A stretch of 64,000 nt of DNA from Candidatus Pacearchaeota archaeon (GTDB lineage: Archaea > Nanobdellota > Nanobdellia > UBA10117 > JABICX01). The stretch covers positions 78,885 through 142,884 of the forward strand of contig JAFCGM010000001.1 of the NCBI GenBank assembly GCA_017608025.1, in the 5' to 3' direction. The notes below the pieces were generated by a model. The model saw only the letters and a list, made by a program, of their open reading frames with translations. It searched no databases and had not been told where the DNA came from. Below are positions 111 through 42,380 of this stretch, piece by piece (the first letter of the stretch is position 1; each line of letters opens with the position of its first letter). The translations under genes and the position numbers were made by a program.

Positions 111-256
111 TTATTCTTTTGTTGCAATCCTTAAAGCGAAGAGATCCACGCTAAGCATAGCTTAGGCGCAAACTAAGTTTTTGCTTCTAGCGACAAATGT
201 TGGTTATGAAACGTCGCTTGTTAAAACAAGAAATTGATTTATTCTTTTGTTGCAAT
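111..256. repeat. Intergenic mini-element (129..238) flanked by an 18-bp perfect direct repeat ttattcttttgttgcaat (111..128 and 239..256). The second copy is the real 3' end plus stop of the Lrp-like gene. The insert carries hairpin gcttaggcgcaaactaag and hairpin agcgacaaatgttggttatgaaacgtcgct (189..218).
   Basis: Direct reading. The 18 nt encoding IATKE-stop occur twice, 110 bp apart. The insert modules resemble other copies (see findings). Confidence 0.6.
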
Positions 257-472
257 TAAAGTGGAAGTTTCTTTGATTTCTTTTATTCTGCGAACTTGCT
301 TTAAAATGAAATCTTCCAGTTTTTGAATGTTTTTGACTCTGAGTTTTGCAATCAAGTCATACTGGCCATAGACAATATGGGCTTCTTTGACTTCATCTGT
401 TTCAAGAAGTTTGTTCATAGCTATTTCATCTTTTCCTGATTCTATAATAAGAAGCAAGTATGCAGTTATCAT
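239..472 (-). CDS. Stand-alone Lrp/AsnC C-terminal (RAM) domain protein, 77 aa
   Basis: Sequence pattern EAHIVYGQYDLIAKLRVKNIQKLEDFI is typical of the AsnC-type ligand-binding domain. No HTH is present, so this is a small RAM-only protein. Confidence 0.45.
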   Translation of the reverse strand: MITAYLLLIIESGKDEIAMNKLLETDEVKEAHIVYGQYDLIAKLRVKNIQKLEDFILKQVRRIKEIKETSTLIATKE

Positions 473-550
473 AAAAATAAGTGGCGGTTATTGCTTATAA
501 AATTATCTGACATAAATTATATATATCTTGTTTTGGATTTTTATTGTAAA

Positions 551-1450
551 ATGCCGATTAATGCAAGTTACGAGTATCTTCAAGCAGAGCAGAAATATTT
601 GGAAGCGGGAAGCACTGCAGAGAAAATAAAAGCATTAAGGGAGATGATTGCCAAGGCTCCAAAGCACAAAGGGGCGGAAAAGCTTATGGCTAATTTGAAG
701 TTAAGGCTTGCAAAACTAAAAGACCTGGCTGAGACAGAAAAGAAGCAAAAGTCAGGCAAGAAATCTGAATTCACAGTTAAGAAAAACGGAGCTTCGCAAA
801 TTGCTATTATTGGATTTCCAAATGCAGGAAAATCAACTCTTCTTAAAAAGCTTTCAAAGACAGAAGTTGAAATAAAACCTTATGCCTTTTCAACAAAAAA
901 GCCTGTTGTGAGGATGATTTCATACGGAAACATAAAGCTTCAGGGTGTTGAAGTTCCTGCGCTTTATGAAGGAGCTTCTGAAAGCAAGGATTACAAGAAA
1001 ATTTTTTCCCTTATACGAAATGCTGATTTTATTTTAGTTGTTTGCAACAAATCAGACGAGTTTGGCAAAATAAAAAAAGAGCTTAGTGCAGAAGGAATCA
1101 TTCTTGAAAAAGAAGGTAGCAGAAAAGTTGCAGGCTTTGAAACAAAGATACCTTACCTTAAAGTTATGAGGGAGAATTTTGATGATTCAAATTTGCTTAA
1201 AAGAATATGGGAAAAGCAAGGTTTGATAAGAGTGATAACTGTTGTAAAGGGAAAGAAAAAGGACAACAAACCTTTAATTTTGGATAAGGGAAGCACAGTT
1301 GAGGATGCTGCGAGACATATCCATAAGGATTTTGTTAAGAAGTTTCGTTTTGCCAGAATCTGGGGAGCTTCAGCAGATTTTCCTGGGCAGCAAGTTGGAT
1401 TGGATTATGAATTGCATGATATGGATAAGATTGAATTTTTTCTTTCTTAA
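551..1450 (+). CDS. DRG/Obg-family GTPase with C-terminal TGS domain (developmentally regulated GTP-binding protein homolog)
   Basis: G1 motif GFPNAGKST, G4 motif NKSD, N-terminal helical region AKLKDL as in DRG, C-terminal TGS-like KGSTVEDAARHIHKDFVKKFRFARIWG. Start moved to the internal Met (MPINASYEY) because the first 20 codons of the ORF lie in the AT-rich promoter region. Confidence 0.6.
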   Translation: MPINASYEYLQAEQKYLEAGSTAEKIKALREMIAKAPKHKGAEKLMANLKLRLAKLKDLAETEKKQKSGKKSEFTVKKNGASQIAIIGFPNAGKSTLLKKLSKTEVEIKPYAFSTKKPVVRMISYGNIKLQGVEVPALYEGASESKDYKKIFSLIRNADFILVVCNKSDEFGKIKKELSAEGIILEKEGSRKVAGFETKIPYLKVMRENFDDSNLLKRIWEKQGLIRVITVVKGKKKDNKPLILDKGSTVEDAARHIHKDFVKKFRFARIWGASADFPGQQVGLDYELHDMDKIEFFLS

Positions 1451-1487
1451 TCAATAAATTTATTATTTTTAATTGTTAGATTAATGC

Positions 1488-1928
1488 ATGAAAATTTCTT
1501 TAAAAGTTGAAGGCATTCCTGTGGCAAAAGGCAGGCCCCGTTTTAGAAGATATGGCAAATTTGTAGGCACTTACACTCCAGCTAAGACTTTGGCAGCAGA
1601 AAAGAAATTGCTTTCAAATGTTAACAAATACAAGCCTTCAACTCCAATTTCAGAACCAATTCATTTGGACATTACTTTTTTTATGCCAATTCCAAAATCA
1701 ACTTCAAAACGAAAAGCAGAATTACTTTGCAAAGAACAGAAACCGCATATTAAAAGACCGGATTTGGATAACTTAGTTAAGCTAGTGAAAGATGCATTGA
1801 ACGGAATTTTCTGGAATGATGATAGTCAGATTTTCTCTATGAATGTTTCAAAAAAATACAGCGACTGCCCATCAACAGAAATAACTATTTCTACAATTAC
1901 AGATACTTCTGAGCAACAAAAATCGTGA
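1488..1928 (+). CDS. rusA: RusA-family Holliday junction resolvase
   Basis: Motifs GRPRF, RPDLDNLVKLVKDAL and WNDDSQI match the RusA catalytic Asp-containing signatures. RusA is usually phage- or prophage-borne. Confidence 0.6.
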   Translation: MKISLKVEGIPVAKGRPRFRRYGKFVGTYTPAKTLAAEKKLLSNVNKYKPSTPISEPIHLDITFFMPIPKSTSKRKAELLCKEQKPHIKRPDLDNLVKLVKDALNGIFWNDDSQIFSMNVSKKYSDCPSTEITISTITDTSEQQKS

Positions 1929-2077
1929 ATAAAGCAACAAGAATTGGCAAGAGCATTATTAGAGAGAAAAACCAAAGCCTTGTTCCAATTGAAAGTTTTA
2001 GAACATATATAAAGAGAGCAGAAAAAACTGCGATTATCAATATGCATATGATAATTAATACAGACCTTATTTTGAGA

Positions 2078-3696: not shown

Positions 3697-4740
3697 TTAA
3701 ATTTTGTAGCGCAGAATTGCAGCAATTCCTCCAAGCCCTTCAAGCTTTTTGCCAGCGTCTTTTTTCGGGTTGAGGATAAGAACTTCTGCTCCAGATTCTT
3801 CAGCGCGAGATATTATTTTAGATATTTTCTTGAACTGCGATTTAATAAGATGCTCTGAGATAAGAAGAGTTTTCACTGCTCCTGAGCTTACTACTTTTTC
3901 AACTTCATCAAATCCATATTCAGCTTTTCCAGAATTTTTTGATATTTCAGAAAGAAGGTTTTCAATTTCCCGTTCTTCTTTTATGTAATGAGACTCTTTT
4001 ACAATCTTGCTGAAACCCTGCTTTAAAATTAATTCGCGAAATGCTTTTTCAGAGCCAGTTGAAGTTGTTTCTGTTATGACTTTTTTGTTAAGGTCTGGCT
4101 TTATTTCAAGAATTTGCTTTTTCAGCTCGTCTTTCCAGAAAAGCGGGCTTGCAAGGAGAATTATTTCAATCTTTTTTTCAGAAATTTCCTTTATTATTTC
4201 TTTGGCAAGGTTTTTTAATGGGTCTTTCTTTTTTTCAGAATACCTTTTTTTGCTTAGTTCGAGTTTGATGTTTGAAACAGGCTTTATTCCTGAAGAAGTT
4301 ACTTTTCCAAGATTTGCTTCAGAGTCATCTAATGAACAGACAATTGCGCGCGGAATGTTTGTGTTTCTTTCTGCATCTTTTAAAATTTCTTTTTGGTATT
4401 TTTTCCACTGCTTTTGAATCCATAGGTCTGAGCCTTGTGAAACCTCAATTGAGTGGAATTCATCTGATGAAACTTGCTCAAGAGTTGTTTCAAGAATTTT
4501 TCCATGAAGCCGGAGATTGAAATTGTCAAAAGATATTTTTTCTATTTTTATTTTTGCAGTTATTGTTTTTCTTGTTGATTTCTGCCTTTCATTTTCAGAG
4601 CTGAGCTTTTGCTTGTAGGAGCTTTTTCCCTTTACAATATCTCCTGGCTCGAGGACTTTTTGTAAGTACCACAAGTCTTCTGGAGAGTCGATTTTGACAT
4701 GAGCAACGCCTGTTTTTTTGTTTAAGGAAAGCAGTTTCAT
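3697..4740 (-). CDS. pelA: Pelota/Dom34 mRNA surveillance factor
   Basis: N-terminus DLWYLQKVLEPGDIV matches the Pelota consensus DLWHLYNLI.GD. The 347 aa length and the eRF1-like C-terminal domain are consistent. Confidence 0.7.
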   Translation of the reverse strand: MKLLSLNKKTGVAHVKIDSPEDLWYLQKVLEPGDIVKGKSSYKQKLSSENERQKSTRKTITAKIKIEKISFDNFNLRLHGKILETTLEQVSSDEFHSIEVSQGSDLWIQKQWKKYQKEILKDAERNTNIPRAIVCSLDDSEANLGKVTSSGIKPVSNIKLELSKKRYSEKKKDPLKNLAKEIIKEISEKKIEIILLASPLFWKDELKKQILEIKPDLNKKVITETTSTGSEKAFRELILKQGFSKIVKESHYIKEEREIENLLSEISKNSGKAEYGFDEVEKVVSSGAVKTLLISEHLIKSQFKKISKIISRAEESGAEVLILNPKKDAGKKLEGLGGIAAILRYKI

Positions 4741-4774: not shown

Positions 4775-4846
4775 CCTTTCTTTTAGAAAAAGAAAGCTGA
4801 TAGGCGCGAATTTATACAAAGGGTTCGCTTCTACGCAAAAGAAAAC
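4775..4846. repeat. Copy of the modular intergenic element: cctttcttttagaaaaagaaag + taggcgcgaatttatacaaagggttcgcttct + acgcaaaagaaaac
   Basis: Same GC-rich core ggcgcgaa ... ttcgcttct as the copies at 42251 and 48952. Located in the divergent region between pelota and the 4961 operon. Confidence 0.55.
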
Positions 4847-4960: not shown

Positions 4961-6157
4961 ATGCTATTGAATAAGAAAGCTAATGCTAATGCTATTATTC
5001 TTTTTACAATTCTCTTAATTGTCACTGTGATTATAATAACAGTTTTTTCGCCGACAGATTATCGAAGGGCTTTGCTAAATGAGTCTTATTCAAATGCAAA
5101 TGATTACGGCAATGTTGTTCTTTTTGAGGCAGCAGATGTTGTTATAAATGAGACAGACCTTGAAGAGGGAACTGAAAGCATTTACCTTCACGATGCAGAG
5201 CTTGACTATGCTGCGCATCGAAAAGAGGAGCAGATTTCAGGAAGCTTTGAAATAAGCAATTCCTTTATTGAAGACAATTCTGCCAAGTTTTACTTGAATG
5301 TGGATGACTCTTTCCAAGGAATGTACTTTACTTTTTATGTTATTTCAAAAGAGGGTAATGGCAAAATAAACATACTCTTAAATGGCCAAAGCATATACAC
5401 AGCATCTCCTGATGAAGGTGAGAAAGTTAATGTTTATGTTCCTAAAAACGCCCTTAAGAAAGGAGACAATGAAATAGTTATTCGAGCAACATATCCTCTG
5501 AACATTTTCAAAGAAAATTCCTTTTCAATTGTTGATTTAAGAGCTTTTTTAACAGAGAGAAATGAAGAGCAGAGAGTTGAGCACACGTTTATTGTTGAAG
5601 ATGCTTCAGAAATAAGAGAGCCTGCCCTTTATGCTTATGTTACAAAAATGCCTTATTCAATTGCAAACAGCAAAATAAAAATTACAATAAATGAGGTAGA
5701 GGTTTTTGAAGGAGTTCCAGCAACAATAAATGATTATGAAACTCCTCAGGTTTTTTACCTTCCTTTGGAGGAAATTTATTTGAAAGACGGAGTTAATGAA
5801 ATCATTTGGGAAGTTGACCTTGGAGGAGCATATTCTGTTGATTTTGTGAAAATTGAATATGAAACTTTGGAGGAGCCAGATGAAGAGGAAGAAAGTGTTT
5901 TTCGGTTTAATATTGATTCTGATGCTTACAAGAAAGTTCGGAGCAAAAGATATTCCTGTGTTTTGACTTTTGAGTCAGATGACATAAACAAGATGTTTGA
6001 ATACAATATAAATGGAAACAAATCTTCTGCTGCAGTTTCATCTTCTGAAATTTCCTTTGATGTTTGTGATTCTCTTAGAAAAGGTCTTAATTCATTGAAA
6101 GTGTCTTCAGGAGAAGACCTGCTTTTCAGCAGAATCAAATTAGAAATCAAAAGGTAA
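4961..6157 (+). CDS. N-terminally membrane-anchored extracellular protein with three G-NEI beta-rich repeats, function unknown
   Basis: Single N-terminal TM segment (ILFTILLIVTVIIITVF). Repeats around KKGDNEIVIRATYP, KDGVNEIIWEVDLG and RKGLNSLKVSS. First gene of a 4-gene same-strand cluster with a 6-bp spacer to the next gene. Confidence 0.4.
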   Translation: MLLNKKANANAIILFTILLIVTVIIITVFSPTDYRRALLNESYSNANDYGNVVLFEAADVVINETDLEEGTESIYLHDAELDYAAHRKEEQISGSFEISNSFIEDNSAKFYLNVDDSFQGMYFTFYVISKEGNGKINILLNGQSIYTASPDEGEKVNVYVPKNALKKGDNEIVIRATYPLNIFKENSFSIVDLRAFLTERNEEQRVEHTFIVEDASEIREPALYAYVTKMPYSIANSKIKITINEVEVFEGVPATINDYETPQVFYLPLEEIYLKDGVNEIIWEVDLGGAYSVDFVKIEYETLEEPDEEEESVFRFNIDSDAYKKVRSKRYSCVLTFESDDINKMFEYNINGNKSSAAVSSSEISFDVCDSLRKGLNSLKVSSGEDLLFSRIKLEIKR

Positions 6158-6162
6158 TTTTT

Positions 6163-8841
6163 ATGGCGAACTGGAGTAATGCTCTTAAAAAACTTGGTAA
6201 TAAAGCAAAGAAAATTAAGCCTAGCAAAATTAAGGAAGCTTCTGGCAAGGGCGTCAAAGCAGTTAAGGGCAAAGCTAAAAATATTGACTGGAAAAAGCTC
6301 CAAAGACAAGCAAAGGAACAAGCAAAGCAAATTGCAAAGGAACAAGGAAAGGAATTTGTAAAAAGTCAGGTTAAGGGTAAAACAGGCATTGATGTAGATG
6401 CTGTTCAGCAAGGAAACATTAGGTCATCTGCAGAAGGTGTTTTTCAGAAATTCAAAGAAAAAAGAGCCAGTTCTGAAGGAGATGATATTCATCAAATTCC
6501 TGGTTATAATCCATCCGCTCAGGAAGTTGTTGCCCCATCTGCGCAGCAACAAGGGATTCAGAGTGGAATTCCACAGCAGTTTTTGGGAAAATTTGGAAGC
6601 AGGAATAAAGGAAAGGCACCATGGATTGTTGTTTTAATTGCCCTTGCGATTGTTCTTGGCGGATTTTTGCTGATGTTTTCCCCTTTTGATTCAGAGTATT
6701 CAGTTCTGGTTATTCTTGTTGGAGGCGGGGCTCTTTTCGGAGGGCTTCTTTTTATTATTGCAACAAGAACACAGGTTTTTCAGGGAATTGGCATAGTCTT
6801 GAAAATAATTTTCATTGAAAAGCCAAAGCAGTTTTTCTTGTGGGTTAAGAAGAAGTTTGCTGTATGGCGGGAGAGGATTAGAAGAGAAAAAGAGCTTAGA
6901 AAAAAGTCCTGGGATGTTGTTCAGGCGCACAAAGATGAAATATCTCCTCTTTTAATGGAGAGTAAGGGATTTAAGGAGCAAGTAAAGGCAGTAAAGATTT
7001 TTGCTGGCATTGTAATTATTCCAATATTATCGTGCGTATATGCTCTGTACTTTTTTTTCTGGAAAGGCAGGAAAATCAAAAAGCTAATTAAAAAAGAGGA
7101 AAAAGAGCATGAAAAAGAGAGAAAGGCTGAAAAAAAAGCAGAGAAAGACAAACCAGAAGGGTTTTACTCTGGCGGAGCTGGAAGTGGCGGAGGTGCTACT
7201 GGAAAAATTCTTTTAGTTGTTGGAATAATTATTCTTATTCTCGGCGGAACTGCTGGATTCTGGTTTGGATATTACAAGAACACTCCACAAGGGCAGAAGA
7301 TTTCTGAGCAATATCTTTCATTTGGAACAAGTACTTATTCTGCTGAAAGAGGGAGCAGAGGTTTCTTCAATTCAGTTTTTCAGACAATAAAATTTGCATT
7401 TTCAGGAGATGTTGAGGAAATAATGAAGTCAAGAGAAGCAGAGTCAGAATATGCGCAGTTTGAGGAAATAAAAACCACAATGGAGGAAGTAAAGCCCTAT
7501 AAAAATCCAGTTTACAAAGATAGTGATATTTCAATTTACGGATACCTTTCTGTTGAGGACGGACCAGAAGAGGGAACTGCTTTTGAGTTTGAAGTTAGGC
7601 AGCTTATGAATGTTGTAATAAGAAATTACAGGAAAAATCAAGTCTGCGATTCAACTTTGCTGAGCTCTGCAGTTTCTAGCATAGACAGTGTTCTTGATGA
7701 AAATAATCACTGCAACAGCAATCCAGAATGTAAACATTTCTGCACCGACACTTCAGACTGGAAATGCTATATTCCTGGAGGAGATCCTGCAAAGGATTCC
7801 AATGGAAATATTATTCCAAATACATTTTTGTTTAAGAACAGATATAACCAACGAGTAATTTGCAGCCACAGCGGTATACAGGATCCAAAAAAGGATTTGC
7901 AGCTTTCAAAAATAACTCTTATTTGGAAATACTGGACACAGGCAATGCTTGAAAAGAGAGTTTATGTTTTTGATTCTGATTACGCAGCACTTCACAAAAA
8001 TCCACTAAAGTCAGCAAACATCTCAAGGTCTTCTTATGAATCTTTGAGCAAGGCAGAGAAGAACATAGGTTTCGGGGCTGGAATAAGCAAGGACAGGGAT
8101 TACATGGTTACAACTCCGCTAGATGCACTGAAATACGGAATGGATTATATTGAGATTTACAACATTATCTTCACTTTGAGGAACAAGGGTCTTGGTGACA
8201 TTGTGGATTTAAAAGACATTGAGGTATGGATTCCTGATTCTGTAAATGTTGTTGAGGAAGAAGGAGATTTTGAAGTCTGCGGAGAAAAGACTGACAGAGG
8301 AATAGTATTTAAGAAATACTGCCTAAAAAAGGATGTAATAGATTCTTTTGACTCAATTGGGCCAGCGCTGTTCAGGAACTTTTATCTGCCAGTGTATGTT
8401 GAAAGCAGCTTTATAGTTGGAAATGAGTGGTTTGATAGTTTTACTTTGACATCAAAAGTTTATTATAAATACAGAGATGAGGCAATGGTTGATGATGTCA
8501 TAAAAGTTGATGTTGGAAGTTCAGTTAAATTACATAAAACTCAGAACAACACTTCCAGCGCTTCAGAAGTTGTTAGCAAAGAAGAAACTGTTTCTGAATT
8601 AGAGACAATTATTTTTGAGGGTAGGGATGAAAATCATGTCTTTGAAATCACAGATGTAAATCCTGATAAAATTATTTACAATTTTGCTGTATCGCAAGAT
8701 AATGTTATTACAAGCCAGCTAATTATGCTTGGCGAAACAAAAGAATACAACTACAAAAGCGGGCAAGGGGAAATAAAAATATTGCTGAAGCACATTGAGG
8801 GCAATGATGCGCTAGTAAACATAACTGCTACTTATTTTTAA
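6163..8841 (+). CDS. Large polytopic membrane protein with a Lys-rich histone-H1-like cytoplasmic N-tail, 4 TM segments, a Gly-rich linker and a ~530-aa Cys-rich extracellular domain; function unknown
   Basis: N-terminus KKLGNKAKKIKPSKIKEASGKGVKAVKGKAKN; TM helices at ~150-200 and ~280-300; GGAGSGGGATG linker; ectodomain with several Cys (CDSTLL, HCNSNPECKHFCTDTSDWKC). Confidence 0.4.
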   Translation: MANWSNALKKLGNKAKKIKPSKIKEASGKGVKAVKGKAKNIDWKKLQRQAKEQAKQIAKEQGKEFVKSQVKGKTGIDVDAVQQGNIRSSAEGVFQKFKEKRASSEGDDIHQIPGYNPSAQEVVAPSAQQQGIQSGIPQQFLGKFGSRNKGKAPWIVVLIALAIVLGGFLLMFSPFDSEYSVLVILVGGGALFGGLLFIIATRTQVFQGIGIVLKIIFIEKPKQFFLWVKKKFAVWRERIRREKELRKKSWDVVQAHKDEISPLLMESKGFKEQVKAVKIFAGIVIIPILSCVYALYFFFWKGRKIKKLIKKEEKEHEKERKAEKKAEKDKPEGFYSGGAGSGGGATGKILLVVGIIILILGGTAGFWFGYYKNTPQGQKISEQYLSFGTSTYSAERGSRGFFNSVFQTIKFAFSGDVEEIMKSREAESEYAQFEEIKTTMEEVKPYKNPVYKDSDISIYGYLSVEDGPEEGTAFEFEVRQLMNVVIRNYRKNQVCDSTLLSSAVSSIDSVLDENNHCNSNPECKHFCTDTSDWKCYIPGGDPAKDSNGNIIPNTFLFKNRYNQRVICSHSGIQDPKKDLQLSKITLIWKYWTQAMLEKRVYVFDSDYAALHKNPLKSANISRSSYESLSKAEKNIGFGAGISKDRDYMVTTPLDALKYGMDYIEIYNIIFTLRNKGLGDIVDLKDIEVWIPDSVNVVEEEGDFEVCGEKTDRGIVFKKYCLKKDVIDSFDSIGPALFRNFYLPVYVESSFIVGNEWFDSFTLTSKVYYKYRDEAMVDDVIKVDVGSSVKLHKTQNNTSSASEVVSKEETVSELETIIFEGRDENHVFEITDVNPDKIIYNFAVSQDNVITSQLIMLGETKEYNYKSGQGEIKILLKHIEGNDALVNITATYF

Positions 8842-8905
8842 TTTAGAACAACCTTTAAAAATAAGCACTGACTATTAATAAGCATAATTATCAGGGTGAA
8901 AGAAC

Positions 8906-10144
8906 TTGGTTGACTGGAAAAAAATAATAATATCTTTCTTTGCTATTATGTTTATTGTTTTGTTTAGCGGATGCCTTGGAAGCGATGATACTGACTTTGA
9001 TACTAATTTAAATGCTCCAGACTCAGTTTCTATTGAGTTTATACCTGGAAATCCTCCTGACCAGATTTATGAAGGAACTCCATTTTCCCTTGCACTGAAG
9101 ATTGAGAATGAGGGAAATGATAAGATAAATTCAGGAGACATGTGGGTTCATGTGATTGGAGTAGACCCTAATTCAATTAAAGAGTTTTCAAATTATGACT
9201 GTAATTCATTCAGCATAAATGCTGGCTCTGGTTTGATTCCTTTTAAAGACTACTCTTTTTCCTTTTCAAGATATAATGAAGGAACTGGGGAATTGCTAGT
9301 TAATTACATTAAGGAAAGCGATACAAATACGAAAACAATTTCTCTTGGTGAGGAATTTATGCTAGAAGAAGATTTTTACTTGACTGTTAACAATGTTGCT
9401 CCTGACGGAACTATTGAGGGAACTGCTTGTAACGGACCATCTTCTGAAGCAACAGATGTAACTGCAGTAAATTTCTTTTCAAAGGAAATAACCACTAGTT
9501 TAATTCCTTCAGTTGAAGTTGACGGGAAGAAAATTCCAGGAGGAATAACTCAGGTTTCATGGGATGCTTTGAAATACAAGGAGAATATTTCATCTGACCA
9601 GCAGCTTGATTTCCTTGCAAAAGCATGCTATATTTACAGCAGCAAGGCAACTGGAAGAGCGTGCTTTAACATAAACCCTTATTCACAAGTTACTGGAACA
9701 CAGACATGCACAGTAAATGGCGAGAAGGAAGTTGGCAACGAAATTGGACCAATTAAAATTACAAAGATGAATGAGTACTACACTGGAAAAAATGAAGGAA
9801 AACAGAGATATACTTTCACTTTGACAATTGAAAATATAGATGACGGAGATGTTTTCTTAAGAAGCGCAGACCTTGAGAATTGTATGGACTTAAAACAGAA
9901 TGAGCTGAACAGGGTTGAAGTCACAAAATTCAAAATAGGTACAATTGATTATATTGCAAACGGACAGTGCGAAAACAATGAAGTTTATTTGACAAACGGA
10001 GTTGGTGAGTGGAACTGCATGATTTCAAAAGACCCAATTACAGGATATGACTTAGTTAACATTGAGATTGAATATGGGTACACGCAGCAAACAAGAAAAA
10101 CACTTACTTTGAAGAACTCGTTTGAAGATGCAGAGCTCTACTAG
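8906..10144 (+). CDS. Secreted lipobox protein (signal peptide ending LFSGC), paralog of the next gene
   Basis: N-terminus IISFFAIMFIVLFSGCLGSDD is a signal plus lipobox-like motif. Internal motif LALKIENEGNDKINSGD is shared with the 10214 paralog (WLEIENTGEKKIDAGE). Confidence 0.4.
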   Translation: MVDWKKIIISFFAIMFIVLFSGCLGSDDTDFDTNLNAPDSVSIEFIPGNPPDQIYEGTPFSLALKIENEGNDKINSGDMWVHVIGVDPNSIKEFSNYDCNSFSINAGSGLIPFKDYSFSFSRYNEGTGELLVNYIKESDTNTKTISLGEEFMLEEDFYLTVNNVAPDGTIEGTACNGPSSEATDVTAVNFFSKEITTSLIPSVEVDGKKIPGGITQVSWDALKYKENISSDQQLDFLAKACYIYSSKATGRACFNINPYSQVTGTQTCTVNGEKEVGNEIGPIKITKMNEYYTGKNEGKQRYTFTLTIENIDDGDVFLRSADLENCMDLKQNELNRVEVTKFKIGTIDYIANGQCENNEVYLTNGVGEWNCMISKDPITGYDLVNIEIEYGYTQQTRKTLTLKNSFEDAELY

Positions 10145-10213
10145 TTTCCCTTAATGGGAAGCTTTTCTTTTATTTTTAACAAAATTTAAATATATACAGA
10201 AGCAGATATTATC

Positions 10214-11467
10214 ATGAAGATTAAGCACTTGCTGATTTCATTTTTTATTGTTTTGATAGTTCTTTTCAGCGGATGTATTGGCAATCCCTTGAAAGAAGAA
10301 AGCACATTTCTTTCAACTTCGCAATCGCTTGATGCCAGGTTTCTTCAAAACGCTCCGCCAAAAAATATCTTTATTGGTGACAGATTTAATATTTGGCTTG
10401 AAATTGAGAATACAGGAGAAAAGAAAATTGATGCTGGCGAGGTAAGGGTTGATTTGAGCAATGCGAATTTGTTCAGGCATTATTATTCATACAATCTTGA
10501 AGGTCATGATGAGTATGGGAGAAAAAACAGGTATGCGGACTTTTTATGGTGGATGAAGGAGCTAACAAAATACACAAGCCACAAAGAGCCTTTTAACTAC
10601 AACGACAAGTTTGAGTGGGCTTCAGCTCTTGGATGCAAAGACAAAAGAGGTATTTTATGCTCAGAATCAACAGATAATACTTACAAGAATGAATGCATTA
10701 GAAACTGCGTATATGAATTTCAAGAGGATTTGAAAAAAGAGTTTTCACATGTTCCTGACTATAACGAATTCAATTCAACAAATAAGCAGTATATAGAGTT
10801 CAATCCAACAAGATACAATATAAATTATCTGCGACCAGCAAGGAAAGACCCGGAATCTGGAAATCGAATTCCTGGCGCAAATGAATTGATTATGTATGAT
10901 GACCTGACTTATGTTGCTGGAGAATCAATTACAGAGGAAAGGCCAATTGACATTTCTGCAAAGATTTGCTATCCTTACCAAACAGAAGGGATTTCAACAA
11001 TATGTGTTACAAAAAGCTCAATTGAATCAGAAATTTGCGACCCGATTGCTGAAAGAAAAGCAGAAACTTCATCTGGACCAATTCATCTTAAAGCAGTTGA
11101 GCAAAAGACAAATGGATATTCATCAGAGGGAGAAGCCCAAGTTGTGACTAGAATTGATTTTGTATTTGAAAAAGCCGACTATAAGAAAGACATATTTTCA
11201 AACACCCACTGCCTGGAAAGAGTTTCTCCGTACAATAAAGATTCATTTAATGTAACTTTTCTTAAAATCGGCTCTAAGGAGTATGACCCAGAACAGGTTT
11301 GCGGGACTTCTAAAATTGAACTTAGAGCGGATGGAACTGGAAGAATAAGCTGCAAGTTTCCAATTAATGGAGTGCATAATGATTATCTTGAGAGAGTTGT
11401 AATAAGAACAAATTATGTTGTGATTATGGAAACAAGCACAGACACGCATGTGATGCCTACATTGTAA
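10214..11467 (+). CDS. Secreted lipobox protein, paralog of 8906..10144
   Basis: N-terminus LLISFFIVLIVLFSGCIGN; shared IEN.G motif; multiple Cys. Confidence 0.4.
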   Translation: MKIKHLLISFFIVLIVLFSGCIGNPLKEESTFLSTSQSLDARFLQNAPPKNIFIGDRFNIWLEIENTGEKKIDAGEVRVDLSNANLFRHYYSYNLEGHDEYGRKNRYADFLWWMKELTKYTSHKEPFNYNDKFEWASALGCKDKRGILCSESTDNTYKNECIRNCVYEFQEDLKKEFSHVPDYNEFNSTNKQYIEFNPTRYNINYLRPARKDPESGNRIPGANELIMYDDLTYVAGESITEERPIDISAKICYPYQTEGISTICVTKSSIESEICDPIAERKAETSSGPIHLKAVEQKTNGYSSEGEAQVVTRIDFVFEKADYKKDIFSNTHCLERVSPYNKDSFNVTFLKIGSKEYDPEQVCGTSKIELRADGTGRISCKFPINGVHNDYLERVVIRTNYVVIMETSTDTHVMPTL

Positions 11468-11513
11468 GCAATTCCAATAATCTTTTTATATGTTATTTTT
11501 TATTTTTAGGCAG

Positions 11514-11549
11514 GAGCCTTTCTTAAAAAGAAACGCTCGCGAAATAAAT
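11514..11549. repeat. Copy of the intron-like module: gagcctttcttaaaaagaaacgctcgcgaaataaat
   Basis: Aligns with the tRNA-Arg intron gagcccttttctctaaaaagaaaagcgttcgcggaaaaaaac. Confidence 0.5.
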
Positions 11550-11580
11550 ATCTTCACTTGGAGATAAAAGGAATTCAAAA

Positions 11581-12840
11581 ATGAGAATCTACGCTGACCT
11601 TCACATTCATTCCCGGTTTTCAAGGGCAACTTCAAAGCAGCTTAATCTTGAAAATTTGGAGAAATATGGTCGAATTAAAGGATTAAACTTAATTGGAACT
11701 GGAGATTTTACTCATCCAGAGTGGATTAAAGAAATTAAGGAAACTCTTCGAGAAGATGGCACAGGAATTTTAAAATCAAAGTCAGGATTTAATTTTGTTT
11801 TGTCAAGTGAAGTTTCTTTGATGTATACGCAGGGAGGAAAAGCAAGAAAAGTTCATCTTGTTCTTTTGGCACCTTCTTTGGAAATTGTTGATAAGATAAC
11901 AGCTTATTTTAAAAGTTTGGGAAGAATTGATTATGACGGTAGACCTATTTTCGGAAAGTCAATTATTGAGGTTACAAGAAAATTAAAGGAAATTTCTGAC
12001 AAGATTGAGATTATTCCTGCTCACATCTGGACTCCTTGGTTTGGGGTTCTAGGAAGCAAGTCTGGTTTTGATTCAATTAAGGAGGCATTTGGAGATGAGG
12101 AAAAGCATATTTATGCAATTGAAATGGGTCTTAGTTCAAATCCAAAGATGAATTGGATGCTTTCTGAGTTAGACAAATACACTTTGATTGCAAATTCAGA
12201 TTCCCATAGCTTCTGGCCTTGGAGGTTAGGAAGGGAATGCAACATTTTTGATTTTGAGGAAATTACATATGATAATTTGATAAAAGCAATAAGAACGAGA
12301 GAAGGATATGTTGGGACAATTGGTGTTGACCCTAACTATGGAAAATACCACTATGACGGTCATAGAAATTGCGGATTTTCCTGCACTCCAGAGAAAGCAA
12401 AAGAGTTGAATTATCTTTGCCCTGTTTGTAAAAGACCTCTTACACTAGGAGTCATGCATCGCGTGAAAAAACTTGCTGATAGAAATTTCGGATTTGTTTT
12501 AAGAGAAAAAGAAGAGCATCACAATTTTCTTCCTCTTTCAGAAGTTGTCTGCAAGGTCTTTGGAAATGGAGTTGCAACAAGAAAAACAATGGAAGCTTAC
12601 AATAAGTTGGTTGAAGGAACAAATGAGTATTTTGTTTTGCTTGAAATGGAAAAAGCGGATATTGAAAAGAGAAGTAGTAAGGACATTGCTGAGATGGTAA
12701 TAAAAAACAGAAAAGAGGATTTTAAAATAAAACCTGGTTATGATGGTGAATATGGTGTTCTTGAATATGAAAATGCTGAAAAAGAAAAATCAAGAAATAT
12801 TTTTGAAGTGAAAAAGCAGCCTTCTCTGCTTGACTTTTGA
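11581..12840 (+). CDS. Endonuclease Q-like PHP-domain nuclease (EndoQ family)
   Basis: N-terminus ADLHIHSRFSRATSKQL...GLNLIGTGDFTHPEW matches the EndoQ/PHP start. C-terminal Zn-ribbon CPVCKRPLTLGVMHR. Length 419 aa. Confidence 0.55.
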   Translation: MRIYADLHIHSRFSRATSKQLNLENLEKYGRIKGLNLIGTGDFTHPEWIKEIKETLREDGTGILKSKSGFNFVLSSEVSLMYTQGGKARKVHLVLLAPSLEIVDKITAYFKSLGRIDYDGRPIFGKSIIEVTRKLKEISDKIEIIPAHIWTPWFGVLGSKSGFDSIKEAFGDEEKHIYAIEMGLSSNPKMNWMLSELDKYTLIANSDSHSFWPWRLGRECNIFDFEEITYDNLIKAIRTREGYVGTIGVDPNYGKYHYDGHRNCGFSCTPEKAKELNYLCPVCKRPLTLGVMHRVKKLADRNFGFVLREKEEHHNFLPLSEVVCKVFGNGVATRKTMEAYNKLVEGTNEYFVLLEMEKADIEKRSSKDIAEMVIKNRKEDFKIKPGYDGEYGVLEYENAEKEKSRNIFEVKKQPSLLDF

Positions 12841-18129: not shown

Positions 18130-18201
18130 GAATTTATTTAACTAGCAGGAGGTATTTTCACTGTTTTGAGTCTTTTTTTAATTTTAGACATAGAAATTAA
18201 T

Positions 18202-26982: not shown

Positions 26983-27063
26983 ATTTTTCTTTCTTTTTTT
27001 ATTTATCTTTTTCTTTTTTGAAAAAAGAAAACCAATGCTAAAAAAACTATTTAATTTTTAATA

Positions 27064-27239
27064 TCTTCTGCAAAAGAACTTTTTATTTCTTATATTATAA
27101 CTATTGAACCCTTTTAGAAAAAGCGTTCACGGAAAAACTTTTAGAAAAAGTTTCATCAAAAAAAGAATATAAGATAAGAGCTTTTCTTAGAAAGAACATC
27201 TTCTGCAAAAGAACTTTTTATTTCTTATATTATAACTAT
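27064..27239. repeat. Element (27105..27198, containing gaacccttttagaaaaagcgttcacggaaaaac) flanked by the 41-bp perfect direct repeat tcttctgcaaaagaactttttatttcttatattataactat (27064..27104 and 27199..27239)
   Basis: Direct reading. Confidence 0.6.
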
Positions 27240-30591: not shown

Positions 30592-31131
30592 ATGAAAAAA
30601 CAAGAAGTTTCTGGGGACATTGTAAGGGGAAAGGTTATTATTGAGGATGATTTTCAAAAAGCGCAGTATCTGAACAGTAGGAGTTTTTTCGGCGAAGTAA
30701 AGGGTGGCAAAAATCCAAGATTGGAATTGTCGCTTTTTGAAGCACTTTATCTTAAGGAAGACGAAAAGTTGAGTGTCAAGAAAAATTCGAAGAAGATTTC
30801 TGTTAAGGCATTTATTGAAAAAGCAGAGAAAGTTATTGATGATTTTTATTCTAAATATTGCGTTTTCAAAGATTTAAGAACTCGCGGATACATTCTTAAG
30901 ACTGCTTTGAAATTTGGAGCAGATTTTAGGGTTTATGACAAAGGAGTCAAGCCAGGAAAGAAGCACGCTCGCTGGCTGCTTTATTGCGCTGATGAAAATG
31001 AAAAAATGACCTGGAAGCAGTTTTCTGCAATGAATCGCGTTTCACACTCAACAAAAAAAGCCCTTTTGGTCGGAATTGTTGATTCTGAAGGCGATGTTAC
31101 CTATTATGAGATTAATTGGATTCGGCCTTAA
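30592..31131 (+). CDS. endA: tRNA-splicing endonuclease catalytic subunit (EndA, homotetramer type)
   Basis: N-terminal domain SFFGEVKGG...ELSLFEALYL. Catalytic C-terminus VFKDLRTRGYILKTALKFGADFRVYDKG...HARWLLY with conserved Tyr/His/Lys positions. Confidence 0.65.
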   Translation: MKKQEVSGDIVRGKVIIEDDFQKAQYLNSRSFFGEVKGGKNPRLELSLFEALYLKEDEKLSVKKNSKKISVKAFIEKAEKVIDDFYSKYCVFKDLRTRGYILKTALKFGADFRVYDKGVKPGKKHARWLLYCADENEKMTWKQFSAMNRVSHSTKKALLVGIVDSEGDVTYYEINWIRP

Positions 31132-31233
31132 TTTCTTTTAGTGGAGGTTTTCTTTTTAAGAAAAAGTCCTATGAGATTAATTGGATTCGGCCTTAATTTC
31201 TTTTAGTGGAGGTTTTCTTTTTAAGAAAAGTCT
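31107..31233. repeat. Perfect ~64-bp tandem duplication (31107..31170 and 31171..31233) of the last 8 codons plus stop of endA and 40 bp of downstream sequence
   Basis: Direct reading: atgagattaattggattcggccttaatttcttttagtggaggttttctttttaagaaaa(a)gtc occurs twice head-to-tail. Confidence 0.7.
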
Positions 31234-34507: not shown

Positions 34508-34705
34508 ATGAAAAACCAAATTTCTATTGAAGATTTTTTAAGAGCAAAAGAGATTGCACAAAAACAGAAGACTTTGAAAGATGAGATGCCAGACGTTGAT
34601 AAAATTGCTGAATACATAAACAGCGAAAATTATACTCCTTTTGAAAGAAATAGAAAACTGCTTCTTCCAAAAATTAGTAGAAATTACAAATTAGATGAAT
34701 TTTAA
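34508..34705 (+). CDS. Hypothetical small protein (65 aa)
   Basis: ORF. Its last 5 codons lie within repeat copy R1. Confidence 0.25.
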   Translation: MKNQISIEDFLRAKEIAQKQKTLKDEMPDVDKIAEYINSENYTPFERNRKLLLPKISRNYKLDEF

Positions 34706-34974
34706 CTCATATAATATTTTATGGTGCAGTCTGTCTCGCCCAGACTGTGCGGCAGCGACCAAATTCTGGTTGAAGGTCACTTTTATATGAATTTTAACTC
34801 ATATAATATTTTTTGATGCTCTGAAAGTTTTGTGGTCCTCCTAGCCGAGAGACCCAGGCTGGCGACGAATGTTGGTAATGAAAAGTCGCTTAAATATACA
34901 ATTTCATTAAGATTATTCAAATTCAGTTAGATGAATTTTAACTCATATAATATTTTTTGATGCTCTGAAAGTTT
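34693..34974. repeat. Three direct copies (34693..34719 partial; 34787..34830; 34929..34974) of gatgaattttaactcatataatatttt(ttgatgctctgaaagtttt), the 3' end plus stop of gene 34927..35208. They are separated by two inserts that each carry a gcgacNaaTNtTGGTNaNgaa..gtcRc hairpin (34754..34779; 34860..34889).
   Basis: Direct reading. The third copy encodes KLSEHQKILYELKFI-stop of the minus-strand ORF. Confidence 0.6.
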
Positions 34975-35208
34975 TATGTTGAGAAGCTTTTTTGCAAACA
35001 AGACAATGTCCTCTTCATCTTTTTCAACATAGCCGTCTTTGTAGACTGTTTTTAATATTGTTTTGTATATGTCCAGGCGGTTGGCATTTTCAGGTAGCTT
35101 TGCAAGCTCTGACAGAATTTCATCTTCCTGATCTGAGATTTTCCTGTCATTGTCTTTTGCTTCCTTTTCAATTAGGTTCATTATTTCAATTACATTAGGC
35201 AGTTTCAT
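34927..35208 (-). CDS. Hypothetical small protein (93 aa)
   Basis: ORF; overlaps the start of the downstream M50-like gene by 4 bp. Confidence 0.3.
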   Translation of the reverse strand: MKLPNVIEIMNLIEKEAKDNDRKISDQEDEILSELAKLPENANRLDIYKTILKTVYKDGYVEKDEEDIVLFAKKLLNIKLSEHQKILYELKFI

Positions 35209-40913: not shown

Positions 40914-41003
40914 ACAAAACCCTTTTAAATCCTTGAAATTAACCAATTATACCCCTGTTAGCTGGAATGTGGGTTTTATACCTGAACCAGAGAAGGTGAT
41001 ATC

Positions 41004-41507
41004 ATGAAAGGACTTTATCAGTATGTAAGAGAGCTTTGGAAAAATCCAAAGAAAAATTTAGGAAAAAAATTTGTAAACAGCAGACTAATTGAATGGCGAA
41101 AACAGCCAGCAATAATTAGAATTGAACGGCCCACAAGAATTGACAGAGCACGCGCTCTTGGATACAAGGCAAAGCAAGGTTATGTTATTGCAAGAGTTAG
41201 GATTAAGAAAGGAACAACAAAAAGACCTGCGGCAAGGAGAAGAGGAAGGCGGCCAAAAAGATATGGTTTAAACAAACTTCCTTTGAAAATCGGAAAGCAA
41301 CAGATTTCTGAGAAAAGAGCTGCAAGAAAGTTTCCAAACCTTGAAGTTCTTAATTCATATTGGGTTGGAGAAGACGGAAAGCAGGAATGGTTTGAGGTAA
41401 TTCTTGTTGACCCTGAGCATCCTGTTATAAAGAATGACAAGAAAATAAATTGGATTTGCGAGCCTCAGCATAGAAAAAGAGTTTTTCGAGGCCTAACAAA
41501 GAAATAA
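41004..41507 (+). CDS. rpl15e: Ribosomal protein L15e
   Basis: [17 protein letters not shown] ... typical L15e N-terminus and basic composition. Confidence 0.8.
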
Positions 41508-41509
41508 TT

Positions 41510-42097
41510 ATGCAACTGGATATTGTAATTCCGAAGAACAATGAAGAAGAGCTTTACAAAGAGGCTCTTTCAAAAAGCAAGATTCCAGTTTTTCTTTATT
41601 CTTCATTAAAATATGATGATTTGCTTTTGAAATTAAAGAGGCTTGAAACTTTTGAAAAGCACAAAACAGCATATCTTTTTGCTCCGAAAAATCCCTCAAA
41701 TCTTAATTTGGACAAGAGAATACGTAAAAAAGTTGATTATGTTATAGGAACTGCACAGGAATTGAAAACTGTTAGAGCTCTTGCAGAAAAAGGCAAAATT
41801 GATTTTTTAGTTAACATTGAAACTGCTGGTGGAAGAGACCACACACATTATCGGCAAAGTAATTTTAACCAGGTTATTGCACGGATTTGCAAGGAAAACC
41901 AGATTTTTTATGCAATTGACTTTTCAAGAATTCGAAAGGTGGAGGGATTTAAACGAGCTATTCTTCTTGGAAGGATTATGCAGAATGCGAAAATATGTAA
42001 GAAGGAAAAAGTCAAAATTAATGTTTTCAGCTTTGCTGTGAAAGAGCAAGAGCTTTTTAATTCAGATATACTAAGTGCCTTTCAATGTATTCTCTAA
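41510..42097 (+). CDS. Probable RNase P protein subunit Rpp30 (Rnp3)
   Basis: Size (195 aa), position directly after rpl15e in the exosome/RNase P superoperon, and an alternating hydrophobic/Asp pattern compatible with a TIM-barrel. Call by context, no diagnostic motif. Confidence 0.35.
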   Translation: MQLDIVIPKNNEEELYKEALSKSKIPVFLYSSLKYDDLLLKLKRLETFEKHKTAYLFAPKNPSNLNLDKRIRKKVDYVIGTAQELKTVRALAEKGKIDFLVNIETAGGRDHTHYRQSNFNQVIARICKENQIFYAIDFSRIRKVEGFKRAILLGRIMQNAKICKKEKVKINVFSFAVKEQELFNSDILSAFQCIL

Positions 42098-42175
42098 TTA
42101 AAGTAAAAAGTAATAAACAACAAGTACGACTACAATAATTGCTGCAACAATTCCAGCAATAACTTTTGCATCCAT
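42098..42175 (-). CDS. Tiny hydrophobic peptide MDAKVIAGIVAAIIVVVLVVYYFLL (25 aa)
   Basis: Hand-translated; paralog of 29497..29583. Confidence 0.25.
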   Translation of the reverse strand: MDAKVIAGIVAAIIVVVLVVYYFLL

Positions 42176-42218
42176 GTAAAAAAATAAAAAATAATTATTT
42201 AAATATTTATCTTAAATT

Positions 42219-42380
42219 AAATGTTTATAACTTCTCCGTTTTTAGGCGCAGCACTTTTTCTTAAAAAGAAAACCTGAATTAAATTCAGGCGCGAATTGAA
42301 ACAAAAGTTCGCTTCTGCACTAAAAGAAATTGTTTTTCAATAAAACTCAAATGTTTATAACTTCTCCGTTTTTAGGCGCA
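42219..42380. repeat. Element (42251..42348: gcactttttcttaaaaagaaaa-cctgaattaaattcagg-cgcgaattgaaacaaaagttcgc-ttctgcactaaaagaaa...) flanked by the 32-bp perfect direct repeat aaatgtttataacttctccgtttttaggcgca (42219..42250 and 42349..42380). The second copy is the last 10 codons plus stop of the beta-CASP gene.
   Basis: Direct reading. The outer copy even keeps a stop codon (TAA instead of TGA). Confidence 0.65.

Follow-up and report, generated by a model that had tools for sequence, protein, structure and literature searches.

At the start of the 64-kb window (the whole stretch of DNA that was analysed), the stop and the last 5 codons of an Lrp/AsnC-like gene (239-472, minus strand) are present twice. 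The functional end of the gene at 239-256 is separated by a 110-nt insert (129-238, plus strand) from an exact outer copy of 18 nt at 111-128, as the first-pass annotation had proposed, and this outer copy is also read through by a plus-strand open frame that runs off the window start. The insert of this event, c1, consists of a degenerate A-unit start, a B-unit, a C-unit (GCGAC-AATGTTGGTTATGAAA-GTCGC) and an AT-rich tail, these units being small hairpins. In c6, the exact 32-nt repeat annotated earlier was also recovered; its inner copy (42349-42380) carries the last 10 codons of a beta-CASP gene (42347-43588, minus strand), and its outer copy (42219-42250) is followed on the minus strand by the original stop, TAA. 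The c6 insert (42251-42348) is an antisense D-type hairpin unit split by a 41-nt B-unit (42276-42316, plus strand), and its final bases complete a new TGA stop for the beta-CASP gene. In c5, three copies were found, as previously noted; they start at 34691, 34783 and 34927. Copy R1 (34691-34720) contains the last 5 codons and stop of a convergent small ORF (34508-34705, plus strand), which is conserved (homolog in contig L081, E = 9e-21). It is followed by insert Ia (34721-34782, plus strand; a GC-rich hairpin and a diverged C-unit), the orphan copy R2 (34783-34834), insert Ib (34835-34926, plus strand; a GC-rich hairpin, a C-unit and an AT-rich tail) and copy R3 (34927-34978), which is the functional end of gene 34927-35208 (minus strand). 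R1 and R3 are identical across 30 nt, and R2 differs from R3 by 2 substitutions in 52 nt. The earlier description of outer copies as orphans is therefore false for c5, and probably also for c1.

For c2, the perfect repeat first placed at 18007-18018 and 18118-18129 does not exist, as these segments are not identical. The true repeat (17996-18017 and 18097-18118) is 22 nt long and 82% identical, with an exact 12-nt core, GGTGATTACCCC. A conserved tiny ORF (METGDYPHQG), which lies upstream of tRNA-His (18203-18278) and HisRS, begins with the right copy, and a duplicate of this ORF (MTNGDYP...) begins with the left copy; the insert (18018-18096, plus strand) is composed of an A-unit, in which a B-unit is nested, and 16 further nt. 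The 23-nt repeat of c3 was present as annotated, except that it contains one mismatch; the left copy (25136-25158) begins within the TAG stop of gene 22840-25137 and extends into its 3' flank, while the right copy (25281-25303) directly adjoins the conserved region upstream of gene 25378-26982. Between them lie an A-unit, a GC hairpin and a second A-unit with a nested B-unit (25159-25280, plus strand), terminating exactly at the A-unit tail GCGGAAA. For c4, the exact repeat was upheld, at 42 nt (27063-27104 and 27198-27239), but not its assignment to a gene terminus, since the left copy is intergenic and the right one directly adjoins the conserved promoter region of gene 27288-29495. The c4 insert (27105-27197, plus strand) contains three hairpin units, namely an A-unit that gave the top model hit (53.6 bits), an E-unit and one other. 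Finally, c7 is a tandem duplication without a foreign insert, as had been stated, with a period of 65 nt, of which 60 nt are exact (31105-31164 and 31170-31229, plus strand); each repeat contains the last 27 nt of endA including the stop and a D-type hairpin unit.

Local direct repeats are far more numerous in the window than in block shuffles. It contains 8 pairs, at 6 loci, of exact repeats that are 16 nt or longer and no more than 400 nt apart, against an expectation of approximately 0.05; of the 20 block-shuffled windows used as the chance control, 19 gave no pair and one gave a single pair. The material comprises 64 kb of genome and approximately 12 events overall. The flanking duplications differ in sequence at each locus and are variable in length, as the first-pass annotation had claimed, ranging from 12 to 52 nt. 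Their edges are sharp, with identity falling to background (31% and 17%) beyond them. Substitutions in the orphan copies range from 0 to 18%, which we read as different ages. As the contig is metagenome-derived, strain variants mis-joined during assembly could create such repeats. This is extremely unlikely, however, as final k-mers and reads are typically longer than repeats of 12-52 nt, independent assemblies (the window, L081, L112 and L146) show the same architecture, substitutions have accumulated in orphan copies, and R1 of c5 is a functional coding end.

The first-pass annotation had suggested a search for empty sites in relatives, and single-copy, insert-free orthologous sites were found in sister MAGs for c2 to c7, which are all the testable events. 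These are located in L203 for c2, in L001 for c3, c4 and c7 (for c4 and c7 also in L204), and in L082 for c5 and c6 (for c5 also in L081); the c4 repeat sequence is single-copy in both L001 and L204. In L081, the closest relative (80% identical), an independent event with a different insert and an 18-nt repeat was found at the same beta-CASP terminus. Together, the empty sister sites and this independent event indicate that the insert-plus-duplication structures are derived, lineage-specific and recurrent. Similar events are present in unrelated contigs. In L112 the repeat is 31 nt long and covers the stretch where two convergent genes overlap, in L146 a repeat of 14 nt encloses a 28-nt unit and nothing else, and further cases are found in L087 and L119. 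Plain tandem duplications were also found at hairpin-bearing gene ends, in c7 (65 nt), L001 (53 nt, 3886-3956) and L081 (89 nt, three copies).

The inserts are not random sequence; they are mosaics of small hairpin units (A, B, C, D and E), forming non-coding blocks of 28-122 nt with one to three units each, which are GC-rich, multi-hairpin and of small-RNA size. The A-unit is approximately 31 nt long, as conservation across 114 copies falls to background outside positions -3 to +28. It folds as a plain hairpin with a 1x1 mismatch, in which a 9-bp stem contains an invariant C·C mismatch, and its closing base pair covaries through all four Watson-Crick types (AT 51, GC 23, CG 22 and TA 10 of 115). 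Insert starts lie 0-2 nt before the A-unit hairpin in c2, c3, c4 and L081, with a degenerate A-unit start in c1, and insert ends coincide with a unit tail in c3, L081 and L146. The B-units (30-41 nt) always lie 3' of CT and end in TTCT, and they were separate insertions in all four filled-versus-empty comparisons. No insert matched an Rfam 15 covariance model at the gathering score or at E ≤ 5, and the hairpin repeat family seems to be undescribed. When terminal inverted repeats were searched for, the best match was no better than in shuffles for 6 of the 7 inserts, and only c6 scored, in low-complexity sequence.

Units without a duplication are also present in the window. The gap from the TGA stop of ORF 49541-49864 (plus strand) to the stop of the L24e gene (49950-50120, minus strand) is filled exactly by two A-units (49862-49953, plus strand). 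Upstream of the Rpp14 gene, a B-unit (48976-49008, plus strand) has been inserted on the 3' side of TCT, at a site whose L082 orthologue is without the unit, and an A'-variant unit (11513-11548, plus strand) lies in an intergenic spacer. Another A-unit (22610-22650, minus strand) lies inside the 65-nt intron of tRNA-Arg(TCT) (22552-22689). A-units were found in at least 120 metagenome contigs, in tRNA introns, at stop codons and in frame in conserved proteins, and their left edge is flush with a stop codon in 10 of 60 metagenome copies. Sense-orientation in-frame A-units account for 21 of 116 copies, with none inside a CDS in the window; the host genes encode Dph2, a GT4 glycosyltransferase, CbiZ, a radical-SAM protein and IS200-like TnpA, and in the Dph2, GT4 and CbiZ proteins Pfam domains align across the insert. 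For single A-units in metagenomes, target duplication, whether long or short, was not above control, therefore the long duplications are not the normal signature of the A-unit family. The window has 10 A-units in 64 kb, compared to 1 in 61 kb and none in another 10.8 kb for sister-lineage loci, and a single copy in 1.24 Mb from other genomes; as a summary figure, the window is approximately 100-fold denser than its relatives. The window belongs to a Woese-/Pacearchaeota-like DPANN archaeon with a small genome, and a burst of small, non-coding repeat units that form hairpins took place recently in its lineage.

Since A-units make up the 5' portion of tRNA introns, in the window and in several contigs, the inserts could be cDNA of small structured RNAs, such as excised tRNA-intron RNAs or mRNA 3' ends already ending in a unit array, inserted by target-primed reverse transcription, for which variable-length target duplications are typical. 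The inserts of c2 and L081 open with ACAGCCC, as does the tRNA-Gly intron of L106, and the small-RNA size and multiple hairpins of the inserts, their one fixed and one variable end and the A-rich unit tail would also fit. Bulge-helix-bulge motifs were detected by a home-made scan in 61 of 115 A-unit copies compared to approximately 50 of 115 with shuffled flanks, although the scan missed its positive control and is not discriminating. The RNA route is very unlikely, because the window ORFs include no reverse transcriptase, there is no poly(A)-like junction, the tail-to-target junctions are without primer-type microhomology, and the B-units act as strand-specific insertions at the DNA level. 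A diversity-generating retroelement, which has a nearby reverse transcriptase and a template/variable repeat pair of approximately 100 nt differing at adenines, was also rejected, as the window ORFs include no reverse transcriptase and the repeats here are 12-52 nt long and identical or near-identical, with few mismatches, which are not adenine-specific.

In the window, unit blocks were inserted directly at stop codons, beside them or in short spacers, and each insertion in the window lineage is bounded by a sharp-edged direct target duplication of 12-52 bp. It is very probable that this represents derived insertion plus duplication of mobile units. The reading that we slightly favour overall is that non-autonomous mobile hairpin repeats were inserted with a variable-length target duplication, and by analogy the units may be non-autonomous mobile elements resembling REP/BIME, IS200/IS605 mini-elements and Rickettsia palindromic elements. 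An enzyme encoded elsewhere would move the hairpin units, making two nicks a variable distance apart at the target; the unit block would be joined between the nicks and the gaps filled, so that the flanking repeat would be a true target-site duplication. The endA tandem duplication of 65 nt would then be a product of this reaction in which no insert was captured. That the duplication itself arose from such staggered cleavage and fill-in, instead of copy-choice or att-like integration, is a tentative proposal, to which we give somewhat less than an even chance. Among the window ORFs scanned (64 kb of genome), there was no Pfam match to a transposase, reverse transcriptase, integrase or Cas1.

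Copy-choice during replication or break repair (FoSTeS/MMBIR-like) could produce a similar outcome. A nascent strand stalled at a hairpin-rich gene end would switch locus, copy approximately 30-120 nt from a unit-array locus and re-anneal 12-52 nt upstream, resulting in an insert and a duplication, while re-annealing without the detour would give a plain tandem duplication. The same lineages do have tandem duplications of similar size at gene ends with hairpins (c7, L001 and L081), and these also resemble duplications derived from slippage or flaps. The unconstrained duplication length would fit a switch-back, and the period (duplication plus insert) is bunched at 92-145 nt. Single units also usually insert without duplication, which means that a second process is needed in any case. 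On the other hand, in 4-5 events the start of the insert coincides with a unit boundary, a precision not expected of a switch guided by microhomology, and no microhomology was found past the repeat edges. Moreover, the window holds no donor copy of any composite insert, and for its single plain tandem duplication there are six events with inserts, all of which hold foreign unit blocks between the copies, unlike slippage products. Copy-choice is therefore possible but unlikely.

The position of the repeats relative to stop codons is not predicted by random staggered cuts and selection. In 7 of 10 events, the distance from one repeat edge to a stop codon is 0-4 nt, and this edge never runs past the stop; in c6, L081 and L112, the new stop that the insert brings falls exactly where the old one was (joint chance approximately 0.003). 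The stop codons after the two copies differ, being TAA/TGA in c6, TGA/TAG in L081 and TTT TAA / TTC TAG in L112. The preference for gene ends claimed earlier is real, but it does not extend to c2, at the start of a tiny ORF, or to the intergenic c4. The duplications keep overlapping or abutting gene ends intact, as in c5, where R1 serves the convergent ORF. Since the genes abut or overlap, the duplication gives each neighbour a complete end, and this is the reason that the insertions survived.

The only model that naturally explains identity ending at the stop codon is att-like integration, in which the incoming DNA, a small circle or an allele with a unit block inserted at the stop codon without duplication, already bore the last codons of the gene and recombined with an empty allele inside those codons. 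The recombination could be Campbell-type or homology-facilitated, and the repeats would be similar to attL and attR, as in integrative elements that restore the 3' terminus of the gene they target. It would also explain the different stop codon after the gene-proximal copy (c6, L081 and L112); units flush with stops and without duplication exist, at 49862-49953 and at the metagenome left edges mentioned above, and the reiterated c5 insertion resembles tandem integration at an att site. Integrative elements and casposons at gene or tRNA 3' ends are kilobases long, encode an integrase or Cas1 and have repeats that are element-specific or of fixed length (14-15 bp in casposons). Like them, c1, c5, c6, L081 and L112 have direct repeats that are the target gene 3' end, bounded by the gene end, with a proximal copy that restores the gene; in contrast, the inserts here encode nothing, share no att core and have a different repeat in each event. 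We consider this explanation decidedly unlikely, because the window ORFs include no integrase and the inserts are merely 28-122 nt, each event would need its own locus-specific repeat, two steps and coexisting alleles are required, and the non-coding events (c2, c3, c4 and L119) share the architecture with no gene end to restore. Casposon or Cas1-type integration was rejected on the basis of the variable 12-52 nt repeats, the lack of terminal inverted repeats and the lack of a Cas1 match in the window ORFs.

It had been stated in the first-pass annotation that no nameable transposon family fits such duplications; however, IS1549 and IS1634 insertions have direct repeats of variable length, 8-514 bp (PMC2266710), therefore long variable target duplications are already known. 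These elements belong to an IS4-related family that is frequent in Euryarchaeota, and their repeats resemble the 12-52 bp duplications found here. They differ in being 1.5-2 kb long with terminal inverted repeats and a DDE transposase, whereas the window inserts are 28-122 nt without terminal inverted repeats, and no Pfam transposase match was found among the window ORFs tested. A classical MITE was rejected, as the inserts have neither terminal inverted repeats nor a short target duplication of fixed length.

Rickettsia palindromic elements are bacterial, approximately 100-150 bp long and inserted in frame in protein and RNA genes of a reduced genome. Palindromic A-units likewise lie in frame within otherwise intact protein genes in metagenome contigs, but they are archaeal and only approximately 31 nt long, and to our knowledge no long target duplication has been reported for the Rickettsia elements. 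REP/BIME and IS200/IS605-derived mini-elements (PATEs), which are moved by Y1 HUH transposases, share with the units described here short imperfect palindromes with a conserved mismatch, mosaic clusters in short gene-end spacers and a strand bias; the insertion of single units without duplication and the position of the B-units, always 3' of a fixed dinucleotide, would also fit. The differences are that the events studied here carry long duplications, which are not known for REP/BIME or PATEs, that the unit sequences are unrelated, and that the A-unit family is archaeal and is also found in tRNA introns and ORFs. A TnpA/RAYT (Y1 HUH transposase) gene was not seen in the 64-kb window, and IS200-like tnpA genes that themselves bear A-units exist in other contigs.

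Direct inspection and two independent repeat scans upheld the short-range direct repeats at the reported places in this window of 34% G+C. The window scan for exact repeats of at least 16 nt, spaced by at most 400 nt, gave 8 pairs at 6 loci, and in the block-shuffled control for such repeats 19 of 20 windows held none and one window held a single pair. Among the seven loci, c1 to c7, the two copies are exact in c1 (18 nt, 111-128 / 239-256), in c4 (42 nt, 27063-27104 / 27198-27239) and in c6, at the end of the beta-CASP gene (32 nt, 42219-42250 / 42349-42380), and differ by one mismatch in c3 (23 nt, 25136-25158 / 25281-25303). The end of the gene at 34927-35208 (minus strand) is present as three copies in c5, R1, R2 and R3, at 34691, 34783 and 34927; R1 equals R3 over 30 nt, and R2 matches R3 over 52 nt with two mismatches. 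The endA duplication c7 carries no insert and is a tandem of period 65 with 60 nt exact (31105-31164 / 31170-31229). For c2, the 12-mers quoted in the first-pass annotation are not the same; the repeat in fact lies at 17996-18017 / 18097-18118 and spans 22 nt, with 82% identity and an exact core of 12 nt.

Substitutions in the orphan copies range from 0 to 18%, with none in c1, c4 and c6, 1 of 23 in c3, 2 of 52 in c5 R2 and 4 of 22 in c2; the duplication process has been active over time. The repeat edges are sharp, as identity in the 10 nt outside them was 31% and 17%, which is background, and microhomology or 'fuzzy edges' outside the repeats could be ruled out on this basis.

The window genes are archaeal housekeeping genes, including EndA, RNase Z, exosome, proteasome, aIF2-alpha, GINS, the primase small subunit and several aminoacyl-tRNA synthetases. 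The closest genome-collection match to the prolyl-tRNA-synthetase-like protein was from a Woesearchaeota MAG at 65% identity, with none nearer, and some LeuRS homologs carried the source names Pacearchaeota, Woesearchaeota or Nanoarchaeota. Sister lineages were reached via protein homologs: MAG GCA_964558255.1 (loci L081 and L204), with approximately 80% amino-acid identity to the window proteins, and MAG GCA_964435825.1 (loci L001, L082 and L203), with approximately 65-75% identity, both syntenic with the window from 17,500 to 58,000. For none of the five consecutive plus-strand ORFs at 4961-12840 (398, 892, 412, 417 and 419 aa) did Pfam give a significant match, even with the threshold relaxed to E <= 1.

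As c1 lies at the window edge, the empty-site comparison covers c2 to c7, and at all of these testable events the orthologous loci of the sister MAGs had one repeat copy and no insert. Empty sites were found for c2 in L203, where a single tiny ORF, MKNGDYPHQC, lies upstream of tRNA-His; for c3 in L001; for c4 and c7 in both L001 and L204; for c5 in L082 and L081, the convergent genes overlapping by 8 nt in L081; and for c6 in L082, where the convergent stops are just 20 nt apart. The beta-CASP terminus of L081 carries a separate event, in which the repeat has 18 nt (6356-6373 / 6468-6485) and the insert, of 94 nt, is a different one. It follows that the structures are derived, recurrent and younger than the split from the 80%-identical relative. 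An assembly artefact is scarcely credible as an explanation, as the repeats are shorter than reads, the repeat copies have diverged and the architecture was seen in four independent assemblies. We are highly confident that the window events are derived insertions of mobile hairpin-unit blocks accompanied by target duplication. The core of the first-pass reading largely holds.

The orthologous loci have tandem structures of their own. A 53-nt tandem duplication lies at 3886-3956 of L001, in the c4-orthologous spacer, which otherwise has none of the window's insert. At the contig end of L081 (1-282), upstream of the proteasome alpha gene, an 89-nt segment bearing a hairpin is present three times in tandem, which may be a genuine array or an artefact of the contig end; the window has a single copy, at approximately 48560-48630.

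The duplications keep both neighbouring genes whole. The convergent ORF 34508-34705 takes its stop and its last five codons from the outermost c5 copy; this ORF is conserved in L081, where the partner gene overlaps it. In L112, another retrieved locus, a 31-nt repeat covers the overlap between convergent RNase HII-like and uridine-kinase-like genes. In c1, the open frame from the window start runs through the outer copy, and without the insert a stop would follow directly after that copy. In 7 of 10 events (c1, c3, the two c5 insertion events c5a and c5b, c6, L081 and L112), a stop codon stands within 0-4 nt of one repeat edge, which never goes past the stop. Where the repeat falls slightly short of the stop, a new stop is supplied by the insert at the exact old position, with TAA changed to TGA in c6, TGA to TAG in L081 and TTT TAA to TTC TAG in L112, for which the joint chance is estimated at approximately 0.003.

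Selection for intact genes tolerates overshoot, and therefore explains neither the edge pinning nor the replaced stops. A terminator T-tract was ruled out as the cause of the pinning, because in c5 and L112 the convergent gene's own codons form the flank, and a 'shortest viable duplication' was ruled out because the unconstrained repeats of c3, c4, c2 and L119 are equally long. The pinning and the replaced stops are best accounted for by an att-like integration of DNA that already bears the gene end; this requires two steps and lacks an integrase, and we consider it quite improbable. Among the window ORFs scanned against Pfam, no integrase, transposase, RT or Cas1 was matched.

The inserts are mosaics of small hairpin units. 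The A-unit, of approximately 31 nt, has the consensus (N)AA-C-C-CTTTT-RRA-AAAAG-C-G-TT(N')-(A/G)CGGAAAA, a pattern found in at least 120 metagenome contigs, with 26-55% G+C among the matches listed. Among these listed matches, only positions -3 to +28 are conserved and the flanks are random (114 non-redundant copies), the closing pair takes all four Watson-Crick types (AT 51, GC 23, CG 22 and TA 10 of 115) and the C·C mismatch is invariant (115 copies). B-units (30-41 nt), in which GGC joins two hairpins and TTCT stands at the end, are on the plus strand in all five copies and were separate insertions, always 3' of CT, in 4 of 4 filled-versus-empty comparisons. C-units are common to c1 and c5, and their loop motif was not found in any of the retrieved loci, while T/A-armed hairpins of the D and E types recur in c4, c6, c7 and many contigs.

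The inserts start 0-2 nt before an A-unit hairpin in c2, c3, c4 and L081, and with a degenerate A-unit in c1; they end with an exact unit tail in c3, L081 and L146. In the minimal case, L146, a bare 28-nt unit is enclosed by two 14-nt repeat copies and sits in frame at the C-terminus of a protein. Copy-choice template switching could bring c7 and the other tandem duplications under one process, but it does not predict such unit-precise starts and no donor was seen in the window; we consider it unlikely. There are no terminal inverted repeats on the inserts, and an Rfam search of the inserts matched no family at gathering score or at E <= 5. The A-unit was not found in 2.9 million viral contigs, the unit sequence did not occur in the searchable full-text literature, and in the literature searched no paper tied MITE-like repeats to these lineages. 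The units are small non-autonomous repeats, apparently of an undescribed archaeal family; they break gene and tRNA callers and are in no Rfam model.

A covariance model built from 32 A-unit copies detected 10 in the window, including one within the tRNA-Arg(TCT) intron. In sister-lineage DNA it detected 1 in 61 kb and none in another 10.8 kb, and 1.24 Mb of other archaeal and bacterial loci yielded 1. This enrichment of approximately 100-fold points to a recent burst. Single metagenome A-units had no excess of long flanking direct repeats (5/104 versus 7/520 controls, among the matches listed), nor of short ones, and long duplication is therefore not the general signature of the family; it is concentrated in the window lineage and sporadic elsewhere (L087, L112, L119 and L146).

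In metagenome contigs, A-units occur in tRNA introns and directly after tRNAs. Among the matches listed from these contigs, 60 copies have a sense ORF upstream, and 10 of these are flush with a stop codon; 21 of 116 copies are in frame within intact proteins in the sense orientation, versus 6 antisense. Dph2, a GT4 glycosyltransferase, CbiZ and a radical-SAM protein are among these proteins, as is, at two sites, an IS200-like TnpA. The sense bias may reflect selection, as the antisense strand has T5 tracts, which are terminators of archaeal transcription. The tRNA-intron link is suggestive of cDNA insertion of small structured RNAs, but this is very improbable, with no RT found among the scanned window ORFs.

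A 65-nt intron interrupts the tRNA-Arg(TCT) gene (22552-22689, minus strand) at the anticodon loop; the intron's 5' part is an A-unit variant, and its 3' part (GCGACAGGTTGAAGG) is similar to the diverged C-unit of insert c5a. The IS200-like tnpA (HUH motif VDHVHLFIK) is a multi-copy gene in many metagenomes, with in-frame 39-nt A-unit insertions at two positions (L094, L114, L138, L182, L196; L088, L092, L101, L105, L129 and others), the second being empty in L138, L193 and L196. In L157 (1748-2238), an A-unit and a GIY-YIG-like small ORF lie between two tRNA genes with an identical 35-nt 3' half.

To our knowledge, long and variable target duplications have no accepted mechanism. Our preferred reading, held tentatively and at somewhat under an even chance, is that two nicks would be made at a variable distance and the gaps then filled, producing the target duplication; the gene for the enzyme would lie outside the window, and c7 would be the same reaction with no insert captured. 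This behaviour is that documented for IS1549/IS1634 (PMC2266710), which make direct repeats of 8-514 bp with no accepted mechanism, a 2008 review having proposed none (PMC2266710); the initial claim that no transposon family does this could therefore not be maintained. Possible, although on the unlikely side, is an unrecognised DPANN insertion mechanism that would mobilise the approximately 30-nt tRNA-intron/in-frame-peptide hairpin units at the CDS/stop boundary, copying 12-52 bp of the gene end and writing a new stop, so that overlapping genes would be parted undamaged; it could be target-primed or act via small circles carrying the gene end.

DGRs, classical MITEs and casposon/CRISPR-type integration were ruled out on their defining features. 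Like REP/BIME and IS200/IS605 mini-elements, the units have hairpins in which a mismatch is conserved, form mosaic clusters, show strand bias and lack duplication when single; like Rickettsia palindromic elements, they insert in frame into ORFs, and into RNA genes, of a reduced genome. The duplications are similar to those of IS1634/IS1549, and also to the att repeats of elements targeting gene 3' ends. No single known family matches all tested features, and the long, variable duplication pinned to stop codons is an unusual trait of this archaeal family.

DPANN archaea have tiny, tightly packed genomes with few recognised mobile elements. The expansion in one lineage of hairpin units that settle in tRNA introns, conserved proteins and gene ends shows ongoing remodelling of these genomes, and the parting of overlapping genes via duplicated ends is one way in which new spacers, 3' UTRs and possibly terminators can form. 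A second, far smaller system with long variable duplications would make the mechanism question tractable, as would the edge pinning to stop codons.

Between the Rpp14 and L24e genes (48990-49950), approximately 840 nt hold two small ORFs without Pfam match (49120-49428, minus; 49541-49864, plus), with a B-unit at one border and two A-units at the other; the sister-MAG site has just approximately 130 nt (L082 4690-4820), and the segment is therefore a lineage-specific insertion. The tiny ORF METGDYPHQG (18097-18130) is conserved as MKNGDYPHQC in L203 (approximately 4776-4808) and lies with a conserved box (AACTAGGAGGTATTTTCACTGTTT) directly upstream of tRNA-His (18203-18278) and the HisRS gene; ORF and box could be a leader or regulatory element of the histidine tRNA/synthetase pair. 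Downstream of the beta-CASP gene, a small ORF of approximately 24-25 aa (42099-42176, minus strand) encodes a hydrophobic peptide, MDAKVIAG..., conserved in L081 (approximately 6500-6575) and not evident at the orthologous site of L082, where the beta-CASP stop is 20 nt from that of the convergent gene. GC skew is positive from 1 to approximately 44 kb and turns negative for the remainder, up to 64 kb; the switch near 44000 could be a replication origin or terminus, or merely a change of gene orientation, and every repeat-insert-repeat event falls in the positive part.
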